This document shows, one piece after another, positions 276 to 6,060 of a stretch of 64,000 nt of DNA. Numbering within the stretch: position 1 is the first letter of the stretch; each line of letters begins with the position of its first letter. This DNA is from Minisyncoccota bacterium. Its GTDB lineage: Bacteria; Patescibacteriota; Minisyncoccia; Phycocordibacterales; UBA918. The translations under genes were made by a program, and so were the position numbers. The notes under the pieces are model-generated. The model saw only the letters and a program-made list of their open reading frames with translations, was not told the DNA's origin and did not search any database. Location: NCBI GenBank assembly GCA_041688155.1, contig JBDNIW010000014.1, forward strand, positions 9,517 through 73,516, given 5' to 3'.

Positions 276-971
276 ATGAAAAACCCATGGCTTATTTTTG
301 GAGGGATTATTGCAGTGCTGTTTATCGGGGCGTTTTATATCGCTGGCACGGCGGGTGACGCTAATAACGAAGGTGTTGAGGAGTTAACACACGTCAAAGG
401 CAACCCTGACGCAGCGGTAACACTGGTTGAGTACAGTGATTTCCAATGTCCAGCTTGTCGGGCGATGTATCCCATGGTCAATGAACTGATGGAGCAGTAC
501 GGTGAATCACTCCGGTTCGAGTACCGCCACTTTCCAATAGAGCGAGCGCACCCGTACGCGGTCCAAGCTGCGATGGCGGTGGAAGCGGCTGGTCAACAAG
601 GGAAGTTTTACGAATTTCACGATCTCGTGTTTGAAAACCAGCAAGTTTGGTCTCAAAGTCCAACGCCAAACGTACTGTTTGCGCAATATGCACAAGAGTT
701 AGAACTCGATATGGATATGTATCGTCGACACGCTAACGCAAGCCTGCTACGAGAAAAAGTCCGTGCGCAGCAACAGGAGGGACTAGAGATGGGTGTCACC
801 GGCACACCGACAATGTTCCTCAACGGTGAGCGAATGCAGTATGGTACCTATGAAGAATTTATCACTCAGATTGCGACCGCAATCGATCCCACAGCAGCCG
901 CAACCGTTCAGGCTGAGGATACAGCCGTGGTCGGCGAAACCGCTGGTGAACCAGTGCGGTTTGGGCTCTAA
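276..971 (+). CDS. DsbA-family thiol:disulfide oxidoreductase (thioredoxin fold)
   Basis: N-terminal hydrophobic anchor; CxxC active site 'FQCPACRAMYP'; ~230 aa typical of DsbA/BdbD. Confidence 0.8.
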   Translation: MKNPWLIFGGIIAVLFIGAFYIAGTAGDANNEGVEELTHVKGNPDAAVTLVEYSDFQCPACRAMYPMVNELMEQYGESLRFEYRHFPIERAHPYAVQAAMAVEAAGQQGKFYEFHDLVFENQQVWSQSPTPNVLFAQYAQELELDMDMYRRHANASLLREKVRAQQQEGLEMGVTGTPTMFLNGERMQYGTYEEFITQIATAIDPTAAATVQAEDTAVVGETAGEPVRFGL

Positions 972-1058
972 TGCTCAATTCTCTGCTACCAGTGGCTGGG
1001 TCACAAAAAGGTTGTCCGGTAGGTCGTATTAGTAATTTGGCAGTCTAAGTCGTCGAGT

Positions 1059-2333
1059 ATGGGAACAGCGGTTGATGTAGAGTGGTTCAAACAAATACAG
1101 CAAGTGTGCGCCGCGACAGAAGAGGTTGAGTGGCTGCAAAAAAACATGCAGATTATTGAGGAAGAGCGTGAGCAGTTTCTGGCTAACGAAATCGAAAACC
1201 CACAATTTACCTATAAACCCCCCACCCAAGCGACGGCGCTGATTGCTCAGGTGGAAGCGTTGGCTGCCACCATTGCCACCACCGAAACTAACCCCGTAGT
1301 AGCTGACCTGTACAAACACAAAATTGCAAACCAGATCACCCGGATTGGTCTGGCAGTCGCCTCTGGCGCTGGTAACGACAAAGACTTCTATACCCTGAGT
1401 TGTGTGCTCTACGGGAAACCGCGCAAAAAATATTTTGCCTATATCGCCAAGCAAGTGGTGGAGCAGTACAAGCAAGTCAACCAAGCTGGCGGCAGTGTTG
1501 GCAAACCACTCTATAAAATAGTATCCAAAATCGACACGACCAAAGTCGATATCAGTGCTGGCATTTTGCCTCCGCCGGTTGCAGAAGTGGAGCTGGTCGA
1601 GTCGGTCGCGCAAGCGGTGGCTATTTTTGAGCACGCTTTGCATAAACTAGAAATCACCGGTTGGCAAGTAGTGGTCGAGGAGCAGAGCAATCGGTCGCGG
1701 TTTTCGGTTAGTGCGCATAACAAGCGGGTATTTGTACCAAACCAAACCCAGCTGGATCGCCGCGGTAAAAAAATGACTACAGTTCAGCTTGAGGGTATTG
1801 TTGAGCATGAGATCGGCGTGCACGCCAACCGCGCTAATGCTGGCAGCAACAGCCAGCTACAGTTGTTGGGTATCGGTCTTGATTCTTACCTCAGAGGGGA
1901 GGAGGGTTTGGCAAGCTACGTCCAGCAGCAGGTGGAAGGCGCCCAAGAGTTCTACGGGTTTGATCGATACTTGGCCGCGTCGCTCGCTGTGGGGATGGAC
2001 GGGAGTAAGCGGGACTTCCGCGGGGTGTTTGAGTTGATGGTGGCGTACTATCAGTTGCAGTTTGCGTCTACTGGCCAAAAACCGTCATATAATAGAATTC
2101 AAAATGCGGCTTGGGAAGTGTGTCTGCGGGTATTTCGCGGTACTACTGGACAAACGCCAGGATGTGTCTACACTAAAGACATCGTCTATCTAGAAGGTAA
2201 CATCGGTATCTGGCATTTCTTGTCGGATAAGCCGCACACGTTCCCAGCTTTTTTTGTTGGTAAATACAACCCGTTATTACCAAGACACGTCAAGGCGCTG
2301 CAGACATTGGGGATTATTACACAAGACTGGTAA
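1059..2333 (+). CDS. DUF1704 / 'QEGLA-motif' family protein with HExxH (putative metallopeptidase-like)
   Basis: 'GEEGLASY' (QEGLA-like) and 'VEHEIGVHANRA' (HExxH) motifs; 424 aa; sits first in conserved 3-gene cluster. Confidence 0.65.
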   Translation: MGTAVDVEWFKQIQQVCAATEEVEWLQKNMQIIEEEREQFLANEIENPQFTYKPPTQATALIAQVEALAATIATTETNPVVADLYKHKIANQITRIGLAVASGAGNDKDFYTLSCVLYGKPRKKYFAYIAKQVVEQYKQVNQAGGSVGKPLYKIVSKIDTTKVDISAGILPPPVAEVELVESVAQAVAIFEHALHKLEITGWQVVVEEQSNRSRFSVSAHNKRVFVPNQTQLDRRGKKMTTVQLEGIVEHEIGVHANRANAGSNSQLQLLGIGLDSYLRGEEGLASYVQQQVEGAQEFYGFDRYLAASLAVGMDGSKRDFRGVFELMVAYYQLQFASTGQKPSYNRIQNAAWEVCLRVFRGTTGQTPGCVYTKDIVYLEGNIGIWHFLSDKPHTFPAFFVGKYNPLLPRHVKALQTLGIITQDW

Positions 2334-2335
2334 CT

Positions 2336-3271
2336 ATGGACAATATGTATAAAACTATGTTGATGGGAGTGGGACTACTGATAATGGGGCCGACGCTCAT
2401 GCACGCACAGTATGACTTTGCGAGTGATCAACCTGCTGCTACTGAGTCGACCTCCAGTATCACAGCTGCGACCACGACTGTCGCTTCAACCACGCTGTTA
2501 AACCTGATCGGTCAAAGTGTAAACGCCAACCAGCAAAACAACCTCACTCAAGCCGAAGAGCTACCCGAAAAAGTCGCGATTATTTCGCTGTTTGATACGC
2601 GCTTAGTGACGGAACCGTCGGGACTCAATATATTTGCCTACTGGGTCCAGGAAGCGGTGCGGATGGGGATTCCGGCTAACACGATATTTCTGATTCTGTT
2701 GACGCCATTTCTAGCACTGCTGGTCAGCTTTACGCGGGTAGTGATTGGGTTGCCAACACTTGATATGCTGGTGCCAATTGCGTTGGCATTTGCGCTCGTG
2801 GCGGTTGGTATCACCATTGGGCTGTTTGTCTTGCTGGCGATTATTTTGGCGTCGTTTATCGCCAAACGCAGTCTGTCCAGCCTCAAAATCATGTTTTATC
2901 CCAAGCGGTCGTTCTCGATGTTGTTCTTGGCGATTGCGGTGTTTGCCGCTTTAACGTTTGGTGCCATTTTAGATTTAGACCGGATTTTGACGGTGTCGAT
3001 TTTCCCGATTTTGATTTTGATGTTACTGGGCGACTTGATTGTGTCGGTGCAGCTGCACAAAAGCGCCCAAGAGACATTTCTCATCACGGGTACGACGGTG
3101 TTGCTGGGGATTATTGGCTACTTTGCGGCTACCAGTCAATTGATTCAGAATACCCTAATTCTGTACCCAGAAATCCTGCTGTTGGTGATCCCGCTCAACA
3201 TACTAGTGGGTCGGTACTTTGGACTACGGGTGCTAGAGCTGTTTCGATTCAATAACGTGTCGACTGATTAG
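2336..3271 (+). CDS. polytopic (about 7-TM) membrane protein, partner of ATP-grasp/QEGLA cluster
   Basis: signal peptide, Ser/Thr-rich ectodomain, then multiple hydrophobic helices; 3-nt spacing to flanking genes. Confidence 0.6.
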   Translation: MDNMYKTMLMGVGLLIMGPTLMHAQYDFASDQPAATESTSSITAATTTVASTTLLNLIGQSVNANQQNNLTQAEELPEKVAIISLFDTRLVTEPSGLNIFAYWVQEAVRMGIPANTIFLILLTPFLALLVSFTRVVIGLPTLDMLVPIALAFALVAVGITIGLFVLLAIILASFIAKRSLSSLKIMFYPKRSFSMLFLAIAVFAALTFGAILDLDRILTVSIFPILILMLLGDLIVSVQLHKSAQETFLITGTTVLLGIIGYFAATSQLIQNTLILYPEILLLVIPLNILVGRYFGLRVLELFRFNNVSTD

Positions 3272-3273
3272 GT

Positions 3274-4563
3274 ATGGCCATCAGTCAAGCATTGCTCGGG
3301 ATGAACGCCCGCAACTACCTCTATATCAGACAGCTCAACCGGCGCAACCATAAACTGGTGGCTGATGATAAACTACTCACCAAACAGATTTTGCTCAAAA
3401 ACGGCGTCGCCACTGACCCGATTTTAGCGCATTTCAAAACCCTGCAAGACGTGCGGACATTTGACTGGACCAGCTTGCCGACTGACTTTGTACTCAAACC
3501 ATCCCACGGGTACGGTGGGCGCGGGATAACCATCATTCGGGATTGGAACGGTGTGTCAGGGACTATCAGCAATGGCCAAACGGTGACTGAGATAGACGTC
3601 GAACGGATGGTGTTTGGTGCGCTTGATGGGGAACATTCACTCAACAATTTACCAGACACGGTGTTTATCGAAAACCGAATCATTCCGCACGCTTTTTTCA
3701 AAAAATACGTTCAGTCTGGCGTACCCGACATCCGGGTGATTGTCTGCAACAAAGTGCCAGTGATGGCGATGATGCGCTTACCAACTGTGTACTCCGACGG
3801 AAAGGCTAATTTGCACCTAGGCGCACTTGGGATCGGGATTGATATGCGCACGGGGATTACGACGTTTGGTACGTTGCACAACAAACTAGTGGACTACATT
3901 CCCAAAACTAAAATCAAAGTCCGGGGGCTCAAAATCCCCGACTGGGAGACTATCCTTGAGACGTCAGTGGCGGCACAGGTGAGTTCCAAGTTAGGGTTTG
4001 CGGGGATTGACATCGTGCTTGATAACGCGCGCGGCCCGTTGGTGCTAGAGATCAACGCCCGCCCAGGACTGAGTATTCAGATTGCTAATCAAGCCTCGCT
4101 GCGGACGAGACTCGAACGTATCGCTGACCTCAAAGTGCCGTCGGTCGAGCGTGGCGTTGAACTGGCCAAACAGCTGTTCGCTGAGCAGCAGCTCGAGGAC
4201 GTCAAGTCAGAAGACCGGGTGTTGGGGGTGATTGAAAAAATCGTCATCTATGGCAGCAAAAAGAAAAAAACCGTCCGGGCCAAAGTCGATACCGGCGCAT
4301 ATCGTACGTCAATTGATAGTGATTTGGTTGAAGAGTTGGGGCTCGATGCGCGCAACAAGTTCGTTCGCGTACGCTCAGGCAGCGGTCGCCAAAAGCGGCG
4401 TACAGTCGCGGTACGATTCAAAATGAAAGGCAAGGAGATTGATTCGATAGCCACGTACACCCCCCGCGACCACCTGCGCTTCCCAGTGATTATCGGACGG
4501 CGTGACATGAAAGGGTTCGTGGTTGACCCCAATGATATCCCCGCCGGCGTCACGGTGAGATAA
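3274..4563 (+). CDS. ATP-grasp (RimK / alpha-L-glutamate-ligase-like) domain fused to C-terminal retropepsin-like aspartyl protease domain
   Basis: ATP-grasp-like N-terminal ~300 aa; C-terminal 'RAKVDTGAYRTSID' (D-T-G-A aspartic protease signature) resembling RimK-associated 'putative ATP-dependent zinc protease' retropepsin fold. Confidence 0.7.
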   Translation: MAISQALLGMNARNYLYIRQLNRRNHKLVADDKLLTKQILLKNGVATDPILAHFKTLQDVRTFDWTSLPTDFVLKPSHGYGGRGITIIRDWNGVSGTISNGQTVTEIDVERMVFGALDGEHSLNNLPDTVFIENRIIPHAFFKKYVQSGVPDIRVIVCNKVPVMAMMRLPTVYSDGKANLHLGALGIGIDMRTGITTFGTLHNKLVDYIPKTKIKVRGLKIPDWETILETSVAAQVSSKLGFAGIDIVLDNARGPLVLEINARPGLSIQIANQASLRTRLERIADLKVPSVERGVELAKQLFAEQQLEDVKSEDRVLGVIEKIVIYGSKKKKTVRAKVDTGAYRTSIDSDLVEELGLDARNKFVRVRSGSGRQKRRTVAVRFKMKGKEIDSIATYTPRDHLRFPVIIGRRDMKGFVVDPNDIPAGVTVR

Positions 4564-4583
4564 ACCCGTGTTACTATTGTGGT

Positions 4584-5330
4584 ATGTTTCGGACGCGCGA
4601 TTTTGTACTGCTGTTTTCTGCCATCATGTTTTTGGTTTTGGCTATTGGGACGACGCTGCTGACGCAGGGTCGGTCCGCTAGTACGATTGCGGTCCCGTTT
4701 GAGCCAGGGGTAGAGTCTGATGTCAGGTACGTTGCAACTATTGCGCCGTCAGATCAGCTCAATCGGGCAGAGCGGGTAGCGGATATGCGCGCCAAAATCT
4801 CGCAAGAGGCGTTTGTCTATGAACCAGCACCTGAGGTCATCGTAGCTACCAACCCGGCCACTAGTACTGAAGAATCTACAGACGTGGTTACAACTGGCGC
4901 GGTGGAGTGTGCAACCTACCAACCATATCTCGGGTTCTGGGACGCCCGCGGGTTGACCCTCACCCTGGCTGCAGGCACCAGGATGCTGACTCGAGCTACC
5001 GCTGCTACCTCTTCCAGTCTAGAGGTGATACTACAATTGCCAATTGGGTCACAACCAAGTGGTAACCCAACTTGTCTCCAGTCTGATGTTATCGGGATTG
5101 CCAACGATGGATCGTTGATCCGTAACGACGAAGTCGCTTTGTATAGTATTTTTGGAGCCGAAACAGTTATCGGCTACGCATTGGATGGATTTCCAATCTA
5201 TGGTGCCGGTGCCGGTGTAGCGGATGCTTGTAGCGGTCGGTTAGTAGCTGGGCAGTTTCGGTATGAAATACAGCGAGGTGGTGTGACCATTATTAACTGT
5301 TTTGCGGCTACGCCGGTAACTCTCCCGTAG
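4584..5330 (+). CDS. hypothetical membrane-anchored protein
   Basis: N-terminal TM helix then Thr/Ala/Gly-rich domain; no recognised motif. Confidence 0.5.
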   Translation: MFRTRDFVLLFSAIMFLVLAIGTTLLTQGRSASTIAVPFEPGVESDVRYVATIAPSDQLNRAERVADMRAKISQEAFVYEPAPEVIVATNPATSTEESTDVVTTGAVECATYQPYLGFWDARGLTLTLAAGTRMLTRATAATSSSLEVILQLPIGSQPSGNPTCLQSDVIGIANDGSLIRNDEVALYSIFGAETVIGYALDGFPIYGAGAGVADACSGRLVAGQFRYEIQRGGVTIINCFAATPVTLP

Positions 5331-5331
5331 T

Positions 5332-6060
5332 ATGGCGACGCTAGTGTTTGATATCGAAACCGTGGGTCAAGATTGGGATACTATCCCCGAATCAACCCAG
5401 TACGCGCTGACCAAATGGATTGGTCAGCAACCAGTGAGCGATGAAGAGAAAGATCGGCAAAGTGAAGCGGTCAAAGAAAAACTTGGTTTGTCACCCTTTA
5501 CCGCCGAAGTCATCTCGCTGGCGATGTACGACCTGGAACGCCAGCAAGGCGCCGTGTATTTTGTGGCTGATGATTCGGTGAGAGATTACGGTGTCGGTGA
5601 CTGGAAATACAAAGTGCGCACCGAGCAACAGTTACTCGAAGATTTCTGGGAGACCGCCCGCAGCTACGACGTGTTTGTCACGTTCAACGGCCGTTCGTTT
5701 GATATACCATTCCTTCTGCACCGTTCATTGATACAAGGAGTGCGTCCGACCAAAGAGTTGACTGGACAACGGTACCTCAATCGGCAAAGTCCGCCGTACC
5801 ACATCGATTTGCTTGATGAGCTATCATTTTACGGTGCGATGCAACGCCGCCCGTCGTTACAGCTGTTGTGCGATGCCTACAACATCCCCTACGAAAAAGC
5901 GGGTATGGGAGGTGAGGACATCACCGAGTATTACATGAATAAAAAATATCGTGATATCGCCGAGAAAAACGCCGCTGATGTAGTCGCGACGACAGCCTTG
6001 TTTCAAAAATGGAAAACCAACCTAGCTCCTGCAAGTTTTATCAATGCAGTGGAATTTTAG
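5332..6060 (+). CDS. RNase H-like 3'-5' exonuclease (PolB-exonuclease-like / DEDDy family)
   Basis: 'LVFDIETVG' (Exo I DxE), 'FVTFNGRSFDIPFL' (Exo II), 'YHIDLLDE' (Exo III YxxxD). Confidence 0.6.
   Translation: MATLVFDIETVGQDWDTIPESTQYALTKWIGQQPVSDEEKDRQSEAVKEKLGLSPFTAEVISLAMYDLERQQGAVYFVADDSVRDYGVGDWKYKVRTEQQLLEDFWETARSYDVFVTFNGRSFDIPFLLHRSLIQGVRPTKELTGQRYLNRQSPPYHIDLLDELSFYGAMQRRPSLQLLCDAYNIPYEKAGMGGEDITEYYMNKKYRDIAEKNAADVVATTALFQKWKTNLAPASFINAVEF

Follow-up and report, generated by a model that had tools for sequence, protein, structure and literature searches.

A three-gene operon in a patescibacterial genome

We analysed a 64,000-nucleotide (nt) stretch of DNA, hereafter the window, from the genome of a Minisyncoccota bacterium, a member of the Patescibacteria or candidate phyla radiation (CPR; GenBank assembly GCA_041688155.1, contig JBDNIW010000014.1, positions 9,517 to 73,516 of the forward strand), with a focus on a compact operon close to its beginning. 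The operon consists of three open reading frames (ORFs) on the + strand, at window positions 1059-2333, 2336-3271 and 3274-4563 (genes A, B and C, respectively), separated by spacers of 2 nt, and the tight packing described in a first-pass annotation, which was made by a model from the sequence alone, is thus upheld. In operon order, the genes encode a MATCAP-family peptidase, a seven-transmembrane (7TM) protein and an ATP-grasp ligase fused to a retropepsin-like aspartic peptidase. More than 100 homologues were found for each of the three proteins, with the catalytic residues being invariant, and the named homologues all come from Candidatus Kaiserbacteria, Nomurabacteria, Paceibacterota or Parcubacteria.

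The order MATCAP-7TM-ligase::retropepsin is kept in the genomic contexts of homologues with 71%, 67% and 58% identity; in the last of these, the flanking genes are different and there is an additional RimK gene. With gene C as the anchor, 80 loci (46-99% identity) were obtained from metagenomes and annotated with custom hidden Markov models (HMMs). The retropepsin is fused to the ligase in 77 of these 80 loci, and the 7TM gene, which often overlaps the ligase start codon, lies immediately 5' of that of the ligase in 59 of the 60 loci that extend far enough upstream. For MATCAP, an upstream gene on the same strand is present in 24 of 50 loci, and 26 of 50 have the gene at some position within the locus. 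The 7TM protein and the ligase::retropepsin fusion therefore form the obligatory core of the system, whereas the MATCAP peptidase is a frequent addition, mainly in the clade that contains the window operon. The recurrence of the trio in related genomes, as had been proposed, was confirmed with the qualification that the MATCAP gene adjoins the other two in only about half of the related loci. A scan of positions 900-5400 for promoters and terminators was uninformative, the counts being not above those in shuffled sequence.

Gene A encodes an apparently active MATCAP-family peptidase

Gene A (1059..2333, +) encodes a 424-aa protein which matches the MATCAP family PF08014, formerly DUF1704, with a score of 75 bits (E 7e-21; gathering score 27), in agreement with the first-pass assignment to DUF1704. 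The protein contains no hydrophobic segment and is therefore predicted to be cytoplasmic. The string HEIGVH, which had been taken for an HExxH motif, is indeed present at residues 250-255, but the motif is HExxxH, with six residues (H250 E251 I G V H255; 1806..1823, +), which is the same atypical zinc-binding and catalytic motif that, along with a downstream EEG motif, which has been described for KIAA0895L, is the hallmark of the MATCAP/TMCP family (PMC10499314). The third metal-ligand motif of the 'EEG/QEGLA' type, G280 E281 E282 G283 (1896..1907, +), is part of GEEGLASY at residues 280-287, which includes the EEGLASY reported previously. H250, E251, H255 and G280-E281-E282-G283 are invariant in 68 homologues with 39-77% identity, and H250, E251, H255 and E282 are still invariant in 65 diverse representatives with identities down to 27%. 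The structure of the protein was modelled with AlphaFold at high confidence (pLDDT 95.7). The protein can be assigned the fold of the MATCAP catalytic domain, and the closest solved structure is that of human MATCAP (22% identity); a Foldseek search of the gene A model against the PDB returned nothing significant and did not recover the MATCAP relationship. Judging from the preserved motifs, gene A apparently encodes an active zinc metallocarboxypeptidase of the MATCAP family, which comprises at least 1,570 relatives of gene A among 50%-identity cluster representatives (E <= 1e-3).

Eukaryotic MATCAP/TMCP carboxypeptidases remove the C-terminal Tyr or Glu from tubulin tails and shorten polyglutamate side chains (PMC10499314). 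The two enzymes MATCAP/TMCP1 and TMCP2 (KIAA0895L and KIAA0895; PDB 7z5g and 7z6s) act as tubulin tyrosine carboxypeptidases and deglutamylases, so that the analogy with tubulin detyrosination drawn in the first-pass annotation amounts, on the peptidase side, to homology. Unlike the eukaryotic hosts of these enzymes, the bacterium studied here has neither microtubules nor tubulin, and the partner ligase encoded by gene C does not belong to the tubulin-tyrosine-ligase (TTL) family, its score against the respective model, PF03133, being 19.0 bits, below the gathering score of 20.1.

Among prokaryotes, genes A and C align over nearly the full length of the models TIGR02421 and TIGR02291, respectively, which represent proteins of gamma- and betaproteobacteria. 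Both models thus match, as had been anticipated, but at scores well under the equivalog cut-offs, namely, 80.5 versus 338.65 bits for gene A against TIGR02421 (QEGLA motif, a hypothetical equivalog) and 264.2 versus 314.2 bits for gene C against TIGR02291, so that the window proteins are divergent relatives rather than equivalogs. In particular, gene A, which carries EEGLA instead of QEGLA, is a relative and not a member of TIGR02421. Compared with these proteobacterial systems, the combination of a fused retropepsin with a trimmed 7TM protein is an architecture peculiar to Patescibacteria. In Photobacterium, low salinity leads to a ~30-fold induction of a QEGLA gene (A0J47_RS17025) and of a gene with the neighbouring locus tag, A0J47_RS17020, which carries the annotation GshB (PMC10308900); this agrees with the osmotic phenotype of the rlo system discussed below. 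Our literature search found no paper that joins MATCAP with RimK-type ligases, although an earlier in silico mention is possible, and the term DUF1704 occurs in none of the papers that the search listed. The gene neighbourhoods of these amidoligases were reportedly first analysed by Iyer et al. in 2009.

Gene C fuses an ATP-grasp ligase to a basic retropepsin domain

Gene C (3274..4563, +) encodes a 429-aa two-domain protein, identified with Pfam and NCBIfam HMMs, which contains no hydrophobic segment and is predicted to be cytoplasmic. The ATP-grasp domain accounts for the N-terminal 305 residues, with the ligase, probably of the RloC/'alpha-L-glutamate ligase-like' (TIGR02291-like) type, assigned to residues 13-283 (3310..4122, +). 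The best Pfam model is PF14397 ATPgrasp_ST (219.8 bits, E 5e-65), and TIGR02291 is matched over positions 10-316 of 317. By contrast, TIGR00768, the RimK family model, gives 57 bits (cut-off 143.4), PF08443 matches residues 233-267 only, and the pre-ATP-grasp domain Rimk_N (PF18030) had no Pfam match in gene C. The Mg-ATP block, G-x-D246 ... E259-x-N261, aligns with that of RimK and is invariant in the homologues. The closest structural neighbours of the ligase domain are enzymes that extend C-terminal Glu residues or make poly-Glu chains, namely, ArgX/LysX, which act on LysW, and RimK, which acts on ribosomal protein S6; good matches in structure were further obtained with D-Ala-D-Ala ligases and with DcsG, a cycloserine synthetase, MdnC/PsnB-type enzymes ranking lower. 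The ATP-grasp fold anticipated for the third protein is thereby corroborated, and within this fold the ligase falls into the RimK/LysX clade.

The retropepsin-like aspartic peptidase domain, probably of the RimB/RloA type, occupies residues 318-429 (4225..4560, +). It matches PF13650 Asp_protease_2 with 34.1 bits (gathering score 24.3), whereas the match to the RimB-like family PF05618, named as a check in the first-pass annotation, remains at 24.8 bits, under the gathering score of 27, with the catalytic Asp located in DTGA. The string AKVDTGAYRTSID, from which the protease domain had originally been recognized, is present at residues 336-348 and includes the catalytic motif D339-T-G-A (4288..4299, +). 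A336, K337, D339, T340, G341 and A342 are all invariant in 56 gene C homologues, and K337 precedes D339 with the K-x-D spacing of K46 and D48 in RloA (RloA numbering according to PMC12239564). The domain is strongly basic, with a net charge of +13 and a pI of 10.5 (median pI of 10.2 in the homologues), which fits an acidic substrate, as is the case for RloA and RimB. A phmmer search of the PDB with the retropepsin domain alone yielded a marginal match, 9g59, with an E value of 0.085.

ATP-grasp ligases, proteases and membrane exporters commonly occur together in the biosynthesis of peptides that are made on the ribosome and modified after translation (RiPPs). By this token, the operon could be a small biosynthetic or conflict cassette, in which a modified peptide (RiPP, toxin or signal) would be tailored by the ATP-grasp enzyme, matured by the peptidases and exported by the 7TM protein. 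In a PADLOC scan for defence systems, the candidate PDC-M08B matched weakly (E 1e-4) over ~40 residues, confined to the retropepsin segment, and no significant match was obtained for genes A and B. Given that there is no precursor-peptide ORF in or beside the cluster, that the ligase belongs to the RimK/LysX clade rather than to the macrocyclases, with the MdnC/PsnB-type matches being the lower ones, and that the chromosomal synteny of the cluster is conserved over many CPR lineages, such a role is exceedingly improbable, and we reject the RiPP or defence interpretation.

Gene B encodes a trimmed 7TM protein with an invariant C-terminal motif

Gene B (2336..3271, +) encodes a polytopic membrane protein of 311 aa, in which residues 116-308 match PF14402 (7TM_transglut; 77.7 bits, E 1.3e-21; gathering score 25), bearing out the first-pass suggestion of a PF14402-type 7TM protein. 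The hydropathy profile delineates a signal- or anchor-like N-terminus (residues 1-25), an ectodomain (residues 26-114) and the 7TM core (residues ~115-290). The ectodomain (window 2411-2677, +) is an acidic, low-complexity region of ~90 aa rich in Thr, Ser and Ala. The NCBIfam model of RloB is matched only at positions 312-505 of 508, with 46 bits against a cut-off of 900, that is, in the C-terminal 7TM part, and the inactive transglutaminase ectodomain of RloB is therefore missing. More generally, the ectodomain of the PF14402 partners varies: it is an inactive transglutaminase in Pseudomonas RloB (PMC12239564), a PKD domain in two related loci (L048 3147-4700, -; L080 2317-3885, +) and lacking altogether in 219-aa forms (e.g. 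L037 6697-7356). Such interchangeable ectodomains, transglutaminase-like, PKD, low-complexity or absent, would fit a role in sensing or anchoring.

The most conserved block of the family is located at the other end of the protein, where the motif G292-R-Y-F-G-L-R-x-x-E-x-x-R-F305 (3209..3250, +; family form G-x-Y-x-G-L-R-x-x-E-x-x-R-F, residues 292-305) includes five positions with 100% conservation (G292, G296, L297, E301 and F305) and two nearly invariant ones (R298, 99%; R304, 96%) in 76 non-redundant members of all architectures. With the N-terminus outside and seven helices, this motif would be cytoplasmic and is a candidate docking site for the ligase.

MATCAP peptidases are linked to ATP-grasp ligases beyond the window-type operon

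Using a DNA pattern derived from the MATCAP motifs, we retrieved 119 MATCAP loci from species-representative genomes, which belong to many classes of Patescibacteria, DPANN and Methanosarcinales archaea, Proteobacteria, Myxococcota, Chloroflexota, Cyanobacteria and Actinomycetota. The loci are fixed 8-kb blocks positioned off-centre from the match, with at least 3 kb available on both sides in only 5 of 118, so that the number of loci in which a related ATP-grasp is encoded within 4 kb of the MATCAP domain or fused to it (24 of 118) should be taken as a minimum rather than as a frequency. ATP-grasp is again the commonest Pfam family among the nearest neighbours in the remaining loci.

Four architectures are found repeatedly. 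The first is that of the window. In the second, a short 7TM gene is followed by a ligase::retropepsin gene and the MATCAP gene lies 1-3 kb away, sometimes with extra RimK-type ligases in between. The third consists of a PKD-7TM gene followed by a gene for an ATP-grasp::MATCAP fusion of ~775 aa, with both domains scoring above the Pfam gathering thresholds, and in the fourth, seen in Saccharibacteria, a canonical RimK (Rimk_N plus RimK) and a stand-alone PF05618 retropepsin are encoded beside MATCAP. Fusions of the third type, ~770-800 aa in length, were found in seven loci (L034 5042-7375, -; L048 802-3141, -; L069 2664-5006, +; L080 3869-6271, +; L095 1506-3833, +; L103 3899-6199, -; L115 3765-6083, +), from Gracilibacteria, Peribacteria, Saccharibacteria and other Patescibacteria. 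Ligase and MATCAP domains are separated in the fusions by a retropepsin domain (hhalign probability 93.4%, E 2.4e-7), the DTG motif of which has decayed (DPH, DLN, NPH or LEP) in six of the seven proteins, the saccharibacterial L080 fusion still having IDTGEG, and the MATCAP domain keeps its HExxxH and EEG motifs. The fusion itself, together with the loss of the retropepsin active site once MATCAP is attached, suggests that both peptidases serve the same ligase, and we consider this to be good comparative evidence for a shared pathway. The MATCAP-ligase linkage, including the fusions with a decayed retropepsin, is the part of this work most worth pursuing. It gives the prokaryotic DUF1704/QEGLA family a testable function, as carboxypeptidases that oppose RimK/RloC-type amino-acid ligases, and suggests that ATP-grasp ligases were paired with MATCAP peptidases, in the manner of the eukaryotic tubulin code, before tubulin existed.

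Some clusters contain one or two extra ATP-grasp ligase genes, between the ligase::retropepsin and MATCAP genes or just upstream (L005 80-952, +; L059 3806-4762, +; L099 2245-3195 and 3220-4185, +). The one in L005 was recognized by RimK Pfam hits and those in L059 and L099 only with the custom ligase HMM (E ~1e-4). By analogy, these additional ligases recall the initiator and elongator pairs of the TTLL enzymes.

Relationship to the rlo and rim systems

The neighbourhood had been described as functionally unassigned, which is not wholly so, since a proteobacterial relative, rloABC of Pseudomonas aeruginosa, was recently studied genetically (Lormand et al., mBio 2025, PMC12239564). This system includes the secreted retropepsin RloA, the 7TM protein RloB with an inactive transglutaminase domain, and the ATP-grasp protein RloC. 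The three RloA paralogues, which cleave polyglutamate, are jointly needed for hypo-osmotic survival, biofilm formation and normal cell shape, and deletion of rloB or rloC suppresses the defects or lethality of the protease-less strain, indicating that the proteases dispose of a product of the ligase and the 7TM protein (PMC12239564). Mutants in rlo are impaired in cell shape and hypo-osmotic survival and have a defect in ampicillin sensitivity, and in Vibrio the orthologues are under the control of VxrAB, a cell-wall stress system (PMC12239564). Disruption of an RloB homologue in Shewanella results in hypervesiculation (PMC12096838). The same kind of chemistry is carried out by RimK and RimB on ribosomal protein S6, including by an active RimB-RimK hybrid (Little et al., JBC 2025, PMC11957791). 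The requirement for contiguous Glu residues is at least 5-6 for RimB (PMC11957791) and at least 8 for RloA (PMC12239564).

The window operon encodes the same three kinds of components as rloABC, namely, an ATP-grasp enzyme, a PF14402 7TM protein and a presumably RimB-like basic retropepsin, which shares the DTG motif and the fold with RloA. The differences are, however, considerable. Whereas RloA is secreted and stands alone, the window retropepsin lacks a signal peptide and is fused to the C-terminus of a cytoplasmic ligase; gene B carries the Thr/Ser/Ala-rich sequence in place of the transglutaminase ectodomain; a MATCAP-family carboxypeptidase gene is added; and the system resides in a monoderm-like CPR bacterium instead of a proteobacterium. 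All Rlo-related NCBIfam models score the window proteins below their cut-offs. With respect to the rim system, the domain order is reversed (ligase-protease in gene C versus RimB-RimK in RimBK), the ligase represents another subfamily (PF14397/TIGR02291-like, without Rimk_N), and the window-type ligase is accompanied by an obligatory 7TM protein and by MATCAP, both of which are missing from rim. Overall, the operon is a patescibacterial variant of the rloABC/rimBK kind and not categorically new; what sets it apart is the ligase-retropepsin fusion in the order opposite to that of RimBK, the trimmed 7TM protein and the MATCAP peptidase.

The resemblance to rim raises the possibility that the operon is responsible for plain RimK/RimB-type glutamylation and deglutamylation of S6, with the membrane protein being an unrelated neighbour or a localization factor. 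The RimK-family HMM and structural matches of gene C, the precedent of the RimB-RimK hybrid acting on S6 (PMC11957791) and the canonical RimK and RimB pairs beside MATCAP genes in Saccharibacteria point in this direction. Nevertheless, the lack of PF18030 in gene C, which scores far better against TIGR02291 than against the RimK family model, and the near-obligatory adjacency of the 7TM gene, which argues for a membrane-linked role, render this explanation very unlikely. Moreover, rimB shows no genetic interaction with rlo in P. aeruginosa (PMC12239564), and rpsF, the gene for S6, was not identified in the window.

A proposed membrane-docked module for building and trimming an acidic chain

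On balance, we lean towards the view that the operon encodes a membrane-docked module for the synthesis and trimming of an acidic peptide tail or polymer with alpha linkages, glutamate being the most likely building block. This view builds on the family and fold assignments, the intact catalytic motifs, the co-conservation and the gene fusions; the specificity for Glu, the nature of the acceptor, the way in which the two peptidases share the work and the part played by the 7TM protein are inferred. The ligase domain of gene C would add amino acids one by one, at the expense of ATP, to a C-terminal carboxylate, either of a protein tail or of a free poly-alpha-glutamate chain. Dimerizing inside the ligase oligomer, the retropepsin domain would act as an endoprotease on long acidic stretches, and gene A would take single residues off the C-terminal end, where a RimB/RloA-type retropepsin cannot act, so that the two peptidases would jointly set the chain length. 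Given the number of contiguous Glu residues that RimB and RloA need, short tails would be left to the exopeptidase. Since both peptidases are predicted to be cytoplasmic, making and trimming the chain would be confined to one side of the membrane, which resembles the situation in rimBK. The invariant cytoplasmic tail of gene B may dock or control the ligase, and its membrane domain may serve for export of the product or else link the activity to the condition of the envelope. The first-pass annotation had proposed a cycle of ligation and trimming, in favour of which speak the ATP-grasp::MATCAP fusions, the decayed retropepsin within them and the location of MATCAP beside RimK and RimB; the cycle and its substrate are nonetheless inferred.

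Several observations weigh against this interpretation. The amino-acid specificity is not readable from sequence. The sub-threshold scores against TIGR02291, TIGR02421 and the RloB and RloA models make the transfer of function from Pseudomonas an extrapolation, and the cytoplasmic location of the window peptidases, as opposed to the secretion of RloA, implies a cycle topology unlike that of rlo. Furthermore, the designation 'sugar-transfer associated', under which Pfam lists the ligase family, is a hint of an acceptor other than a protein, the MATCAP gene is missing from the immediate neighbourhood of about half of the related loci, and many MATCAP loci show no ligase within their incomplete 8-kb blocks.

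The system is widespread in Patescibacteria, the reduced genomes of which keep few non-essential functions, and is thus probably important for the envelope or for the physiology of these bacteria. In Pseudomonas, rlo affects antibiotic tolerance, biofilm formation and osmotic survival (PMC12239564), and because the enzymatic parts of the CPR system are all cytoplasmic and fused, it may provide an easier setting for finding the product of rlo-type enzymes.

The C-terminal tail of the 7TM protein as a candidate acceptor

One specific candidate for the acceptor is the 7TM protein itself. Under this hypothesis, the ligase would lengthen the short cytoplasmic tail of gene B, NNVSTD (3251..3268, +), which ends with an acidic residue, and MATCAP and the retropepsin would trim it, resulting in a reversible 'tail code' that tunes transport or signalling. 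In the 7TM proteins, a tail of 3-8 residues directly follows the invariant motif, the most conserved one of the family. It ends with D or E in 89 of 119 close homologues, compared with a background of 15%, and with -EE in 6 of the 7 PKD-7TM partners of the ATP-grasp::MATCAP fusions, reminiscent of the RimK acceptor S6 with its -EE, of LysW with its C-terminal Glu and of tubulin with its -EEY. Acidic ends and an adjacent MATCAP gene tend to occur together (20 of 31 versus 4 of 25 loci; Fisher p = 3.6e-4, not corrected for phylogeny), and the 7TM gene nearly always adjoins that of the ligase, as described above. However, more distant clades have K, N, H or T at this position, the non-acidic ends in MATCAP-bearing loci are mostly -LEK, -KER or -LER, and the 219-aa 7TM forms end with K, R, Q or D despite MATCAP being 1-3 kb away. 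We regard the 7TM tail as an unlikely acceptor, although its modification would directly parallel the action of TTL/TTLL and MATCAP on tubulin tails, or of RimK and RimB on S6. The more far-reaching proposition, that a tail code on the 7TM partner is the prokaryotic counterpart of the tubulin tyrosination/glutamylation cycle, with bacterial MATCAPs being the 'deglutamylases' of RimK/RloC-type ligases, appears to us somewhat more doubtful; if true, it would point to a possible evolutionary source of the peptidase half of the tubulin cycle. When other candidate substrates were sought among the window ORFs, none with a strongly acidic C-terminus was found.

A possible cell-envelope acceptor and the genomic neighbourhood

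Alternatively, the ligase could attach amino acids to a cell-wall precursor, a lipid-linked glycan or a surface polysaccharide, which the 7TM protein would flip or present, with the peptidases recycling or editing the peptide part. The good structural matches of gene C to D-Ala-D-Ala ligases and DcsG, and the 'sugar-transfer associated' ATP-grasp model being the best in Pfam, are compatible with this possibility, as are the shape, ampicillin and osmotic phenotypes of rlo, the VxrAB control of its Vibrio orthologues and the hypervesiculation upon loss of the RloB homologue. In addition, glycosidases, an EamA-family transporter and a DsbA-like protein are encoded near the operon in the window, and class A penicillin-binding proteins account for 5 of 135 MATCAP neighbours. 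Yet, the closest ligase structures are those of protein C-terminal Glu ligases, RimB/RloA-type retropepsins and MATCAPs are known to act on alpha-peptide substrates only (PMC11957791, PMC12239564, PMC10499314), both window peptidases are predicted to be cytoplasmic, and in L005 the conservation of the trio does not extend to the flanking genes. An envelope acceptor thus seems distinctly improbable, and a membrane-docked module acting on an alpha-linked acidic chain is the reading that we retain.

The DsbA-like protein, with a thioredoxin fold and an N-terminal hydrophobic segment, is encoded directly 5' of the trio (276-971, +), and a DsbA-like gene is similarly located in four related loci (L001-L004). 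Thioredoxin and DsbD genes are found close to the cluster in L005, and Thioredoxin_4/DSBA is among the neighbours of three further MATCAP loci. These arrangements may reflect nothing more than synteny. Immediately 3' of the trio, the window encodes a 248-aa protein (4584-5330, +) with an N-terminal hydrophobic segment and a weak match to YHYH (23 bits, under the gathering score), which is likely membrane-anchored or secreted, followed by a stand-alone 3'-5' exonuclease similar to the PolB exonuclease (5332-6060, +; PF10108, 82 bits). Both genes are kept 3' of the trio in L001-L004 but not in L005.

In a Nomurabacteria genome, a ~615-aa protein devoid of Pfam annotation is encoded 3' of the trio (L001 9088-10953, +; L002 8536-10401, +), which has no equivalent in the window and weakly matches the MATCAP profile (E 3e-10); it may be a divergent second MATCAP copy or the match may be spurious. 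MATCAP-like domains were also detected in very long proteins, of 900 to ~1,390 aa, from Methanosarcina, Ktedonobacteraceae and other Chloroflexota (L009 1380-4091, -; L015 4325-7999, -; L075 1-3980, -; L111 1105-5271, -). As for the window as a whole, there is a strong coding-strand bias, with 50 of the 59 long non-overlapping ORFs located on the + strand, and the cumulative GC skew climbs steadily across the first 12 kb, which is consistent with a long array of co-directional genes on one replichore of a small CPR genome.

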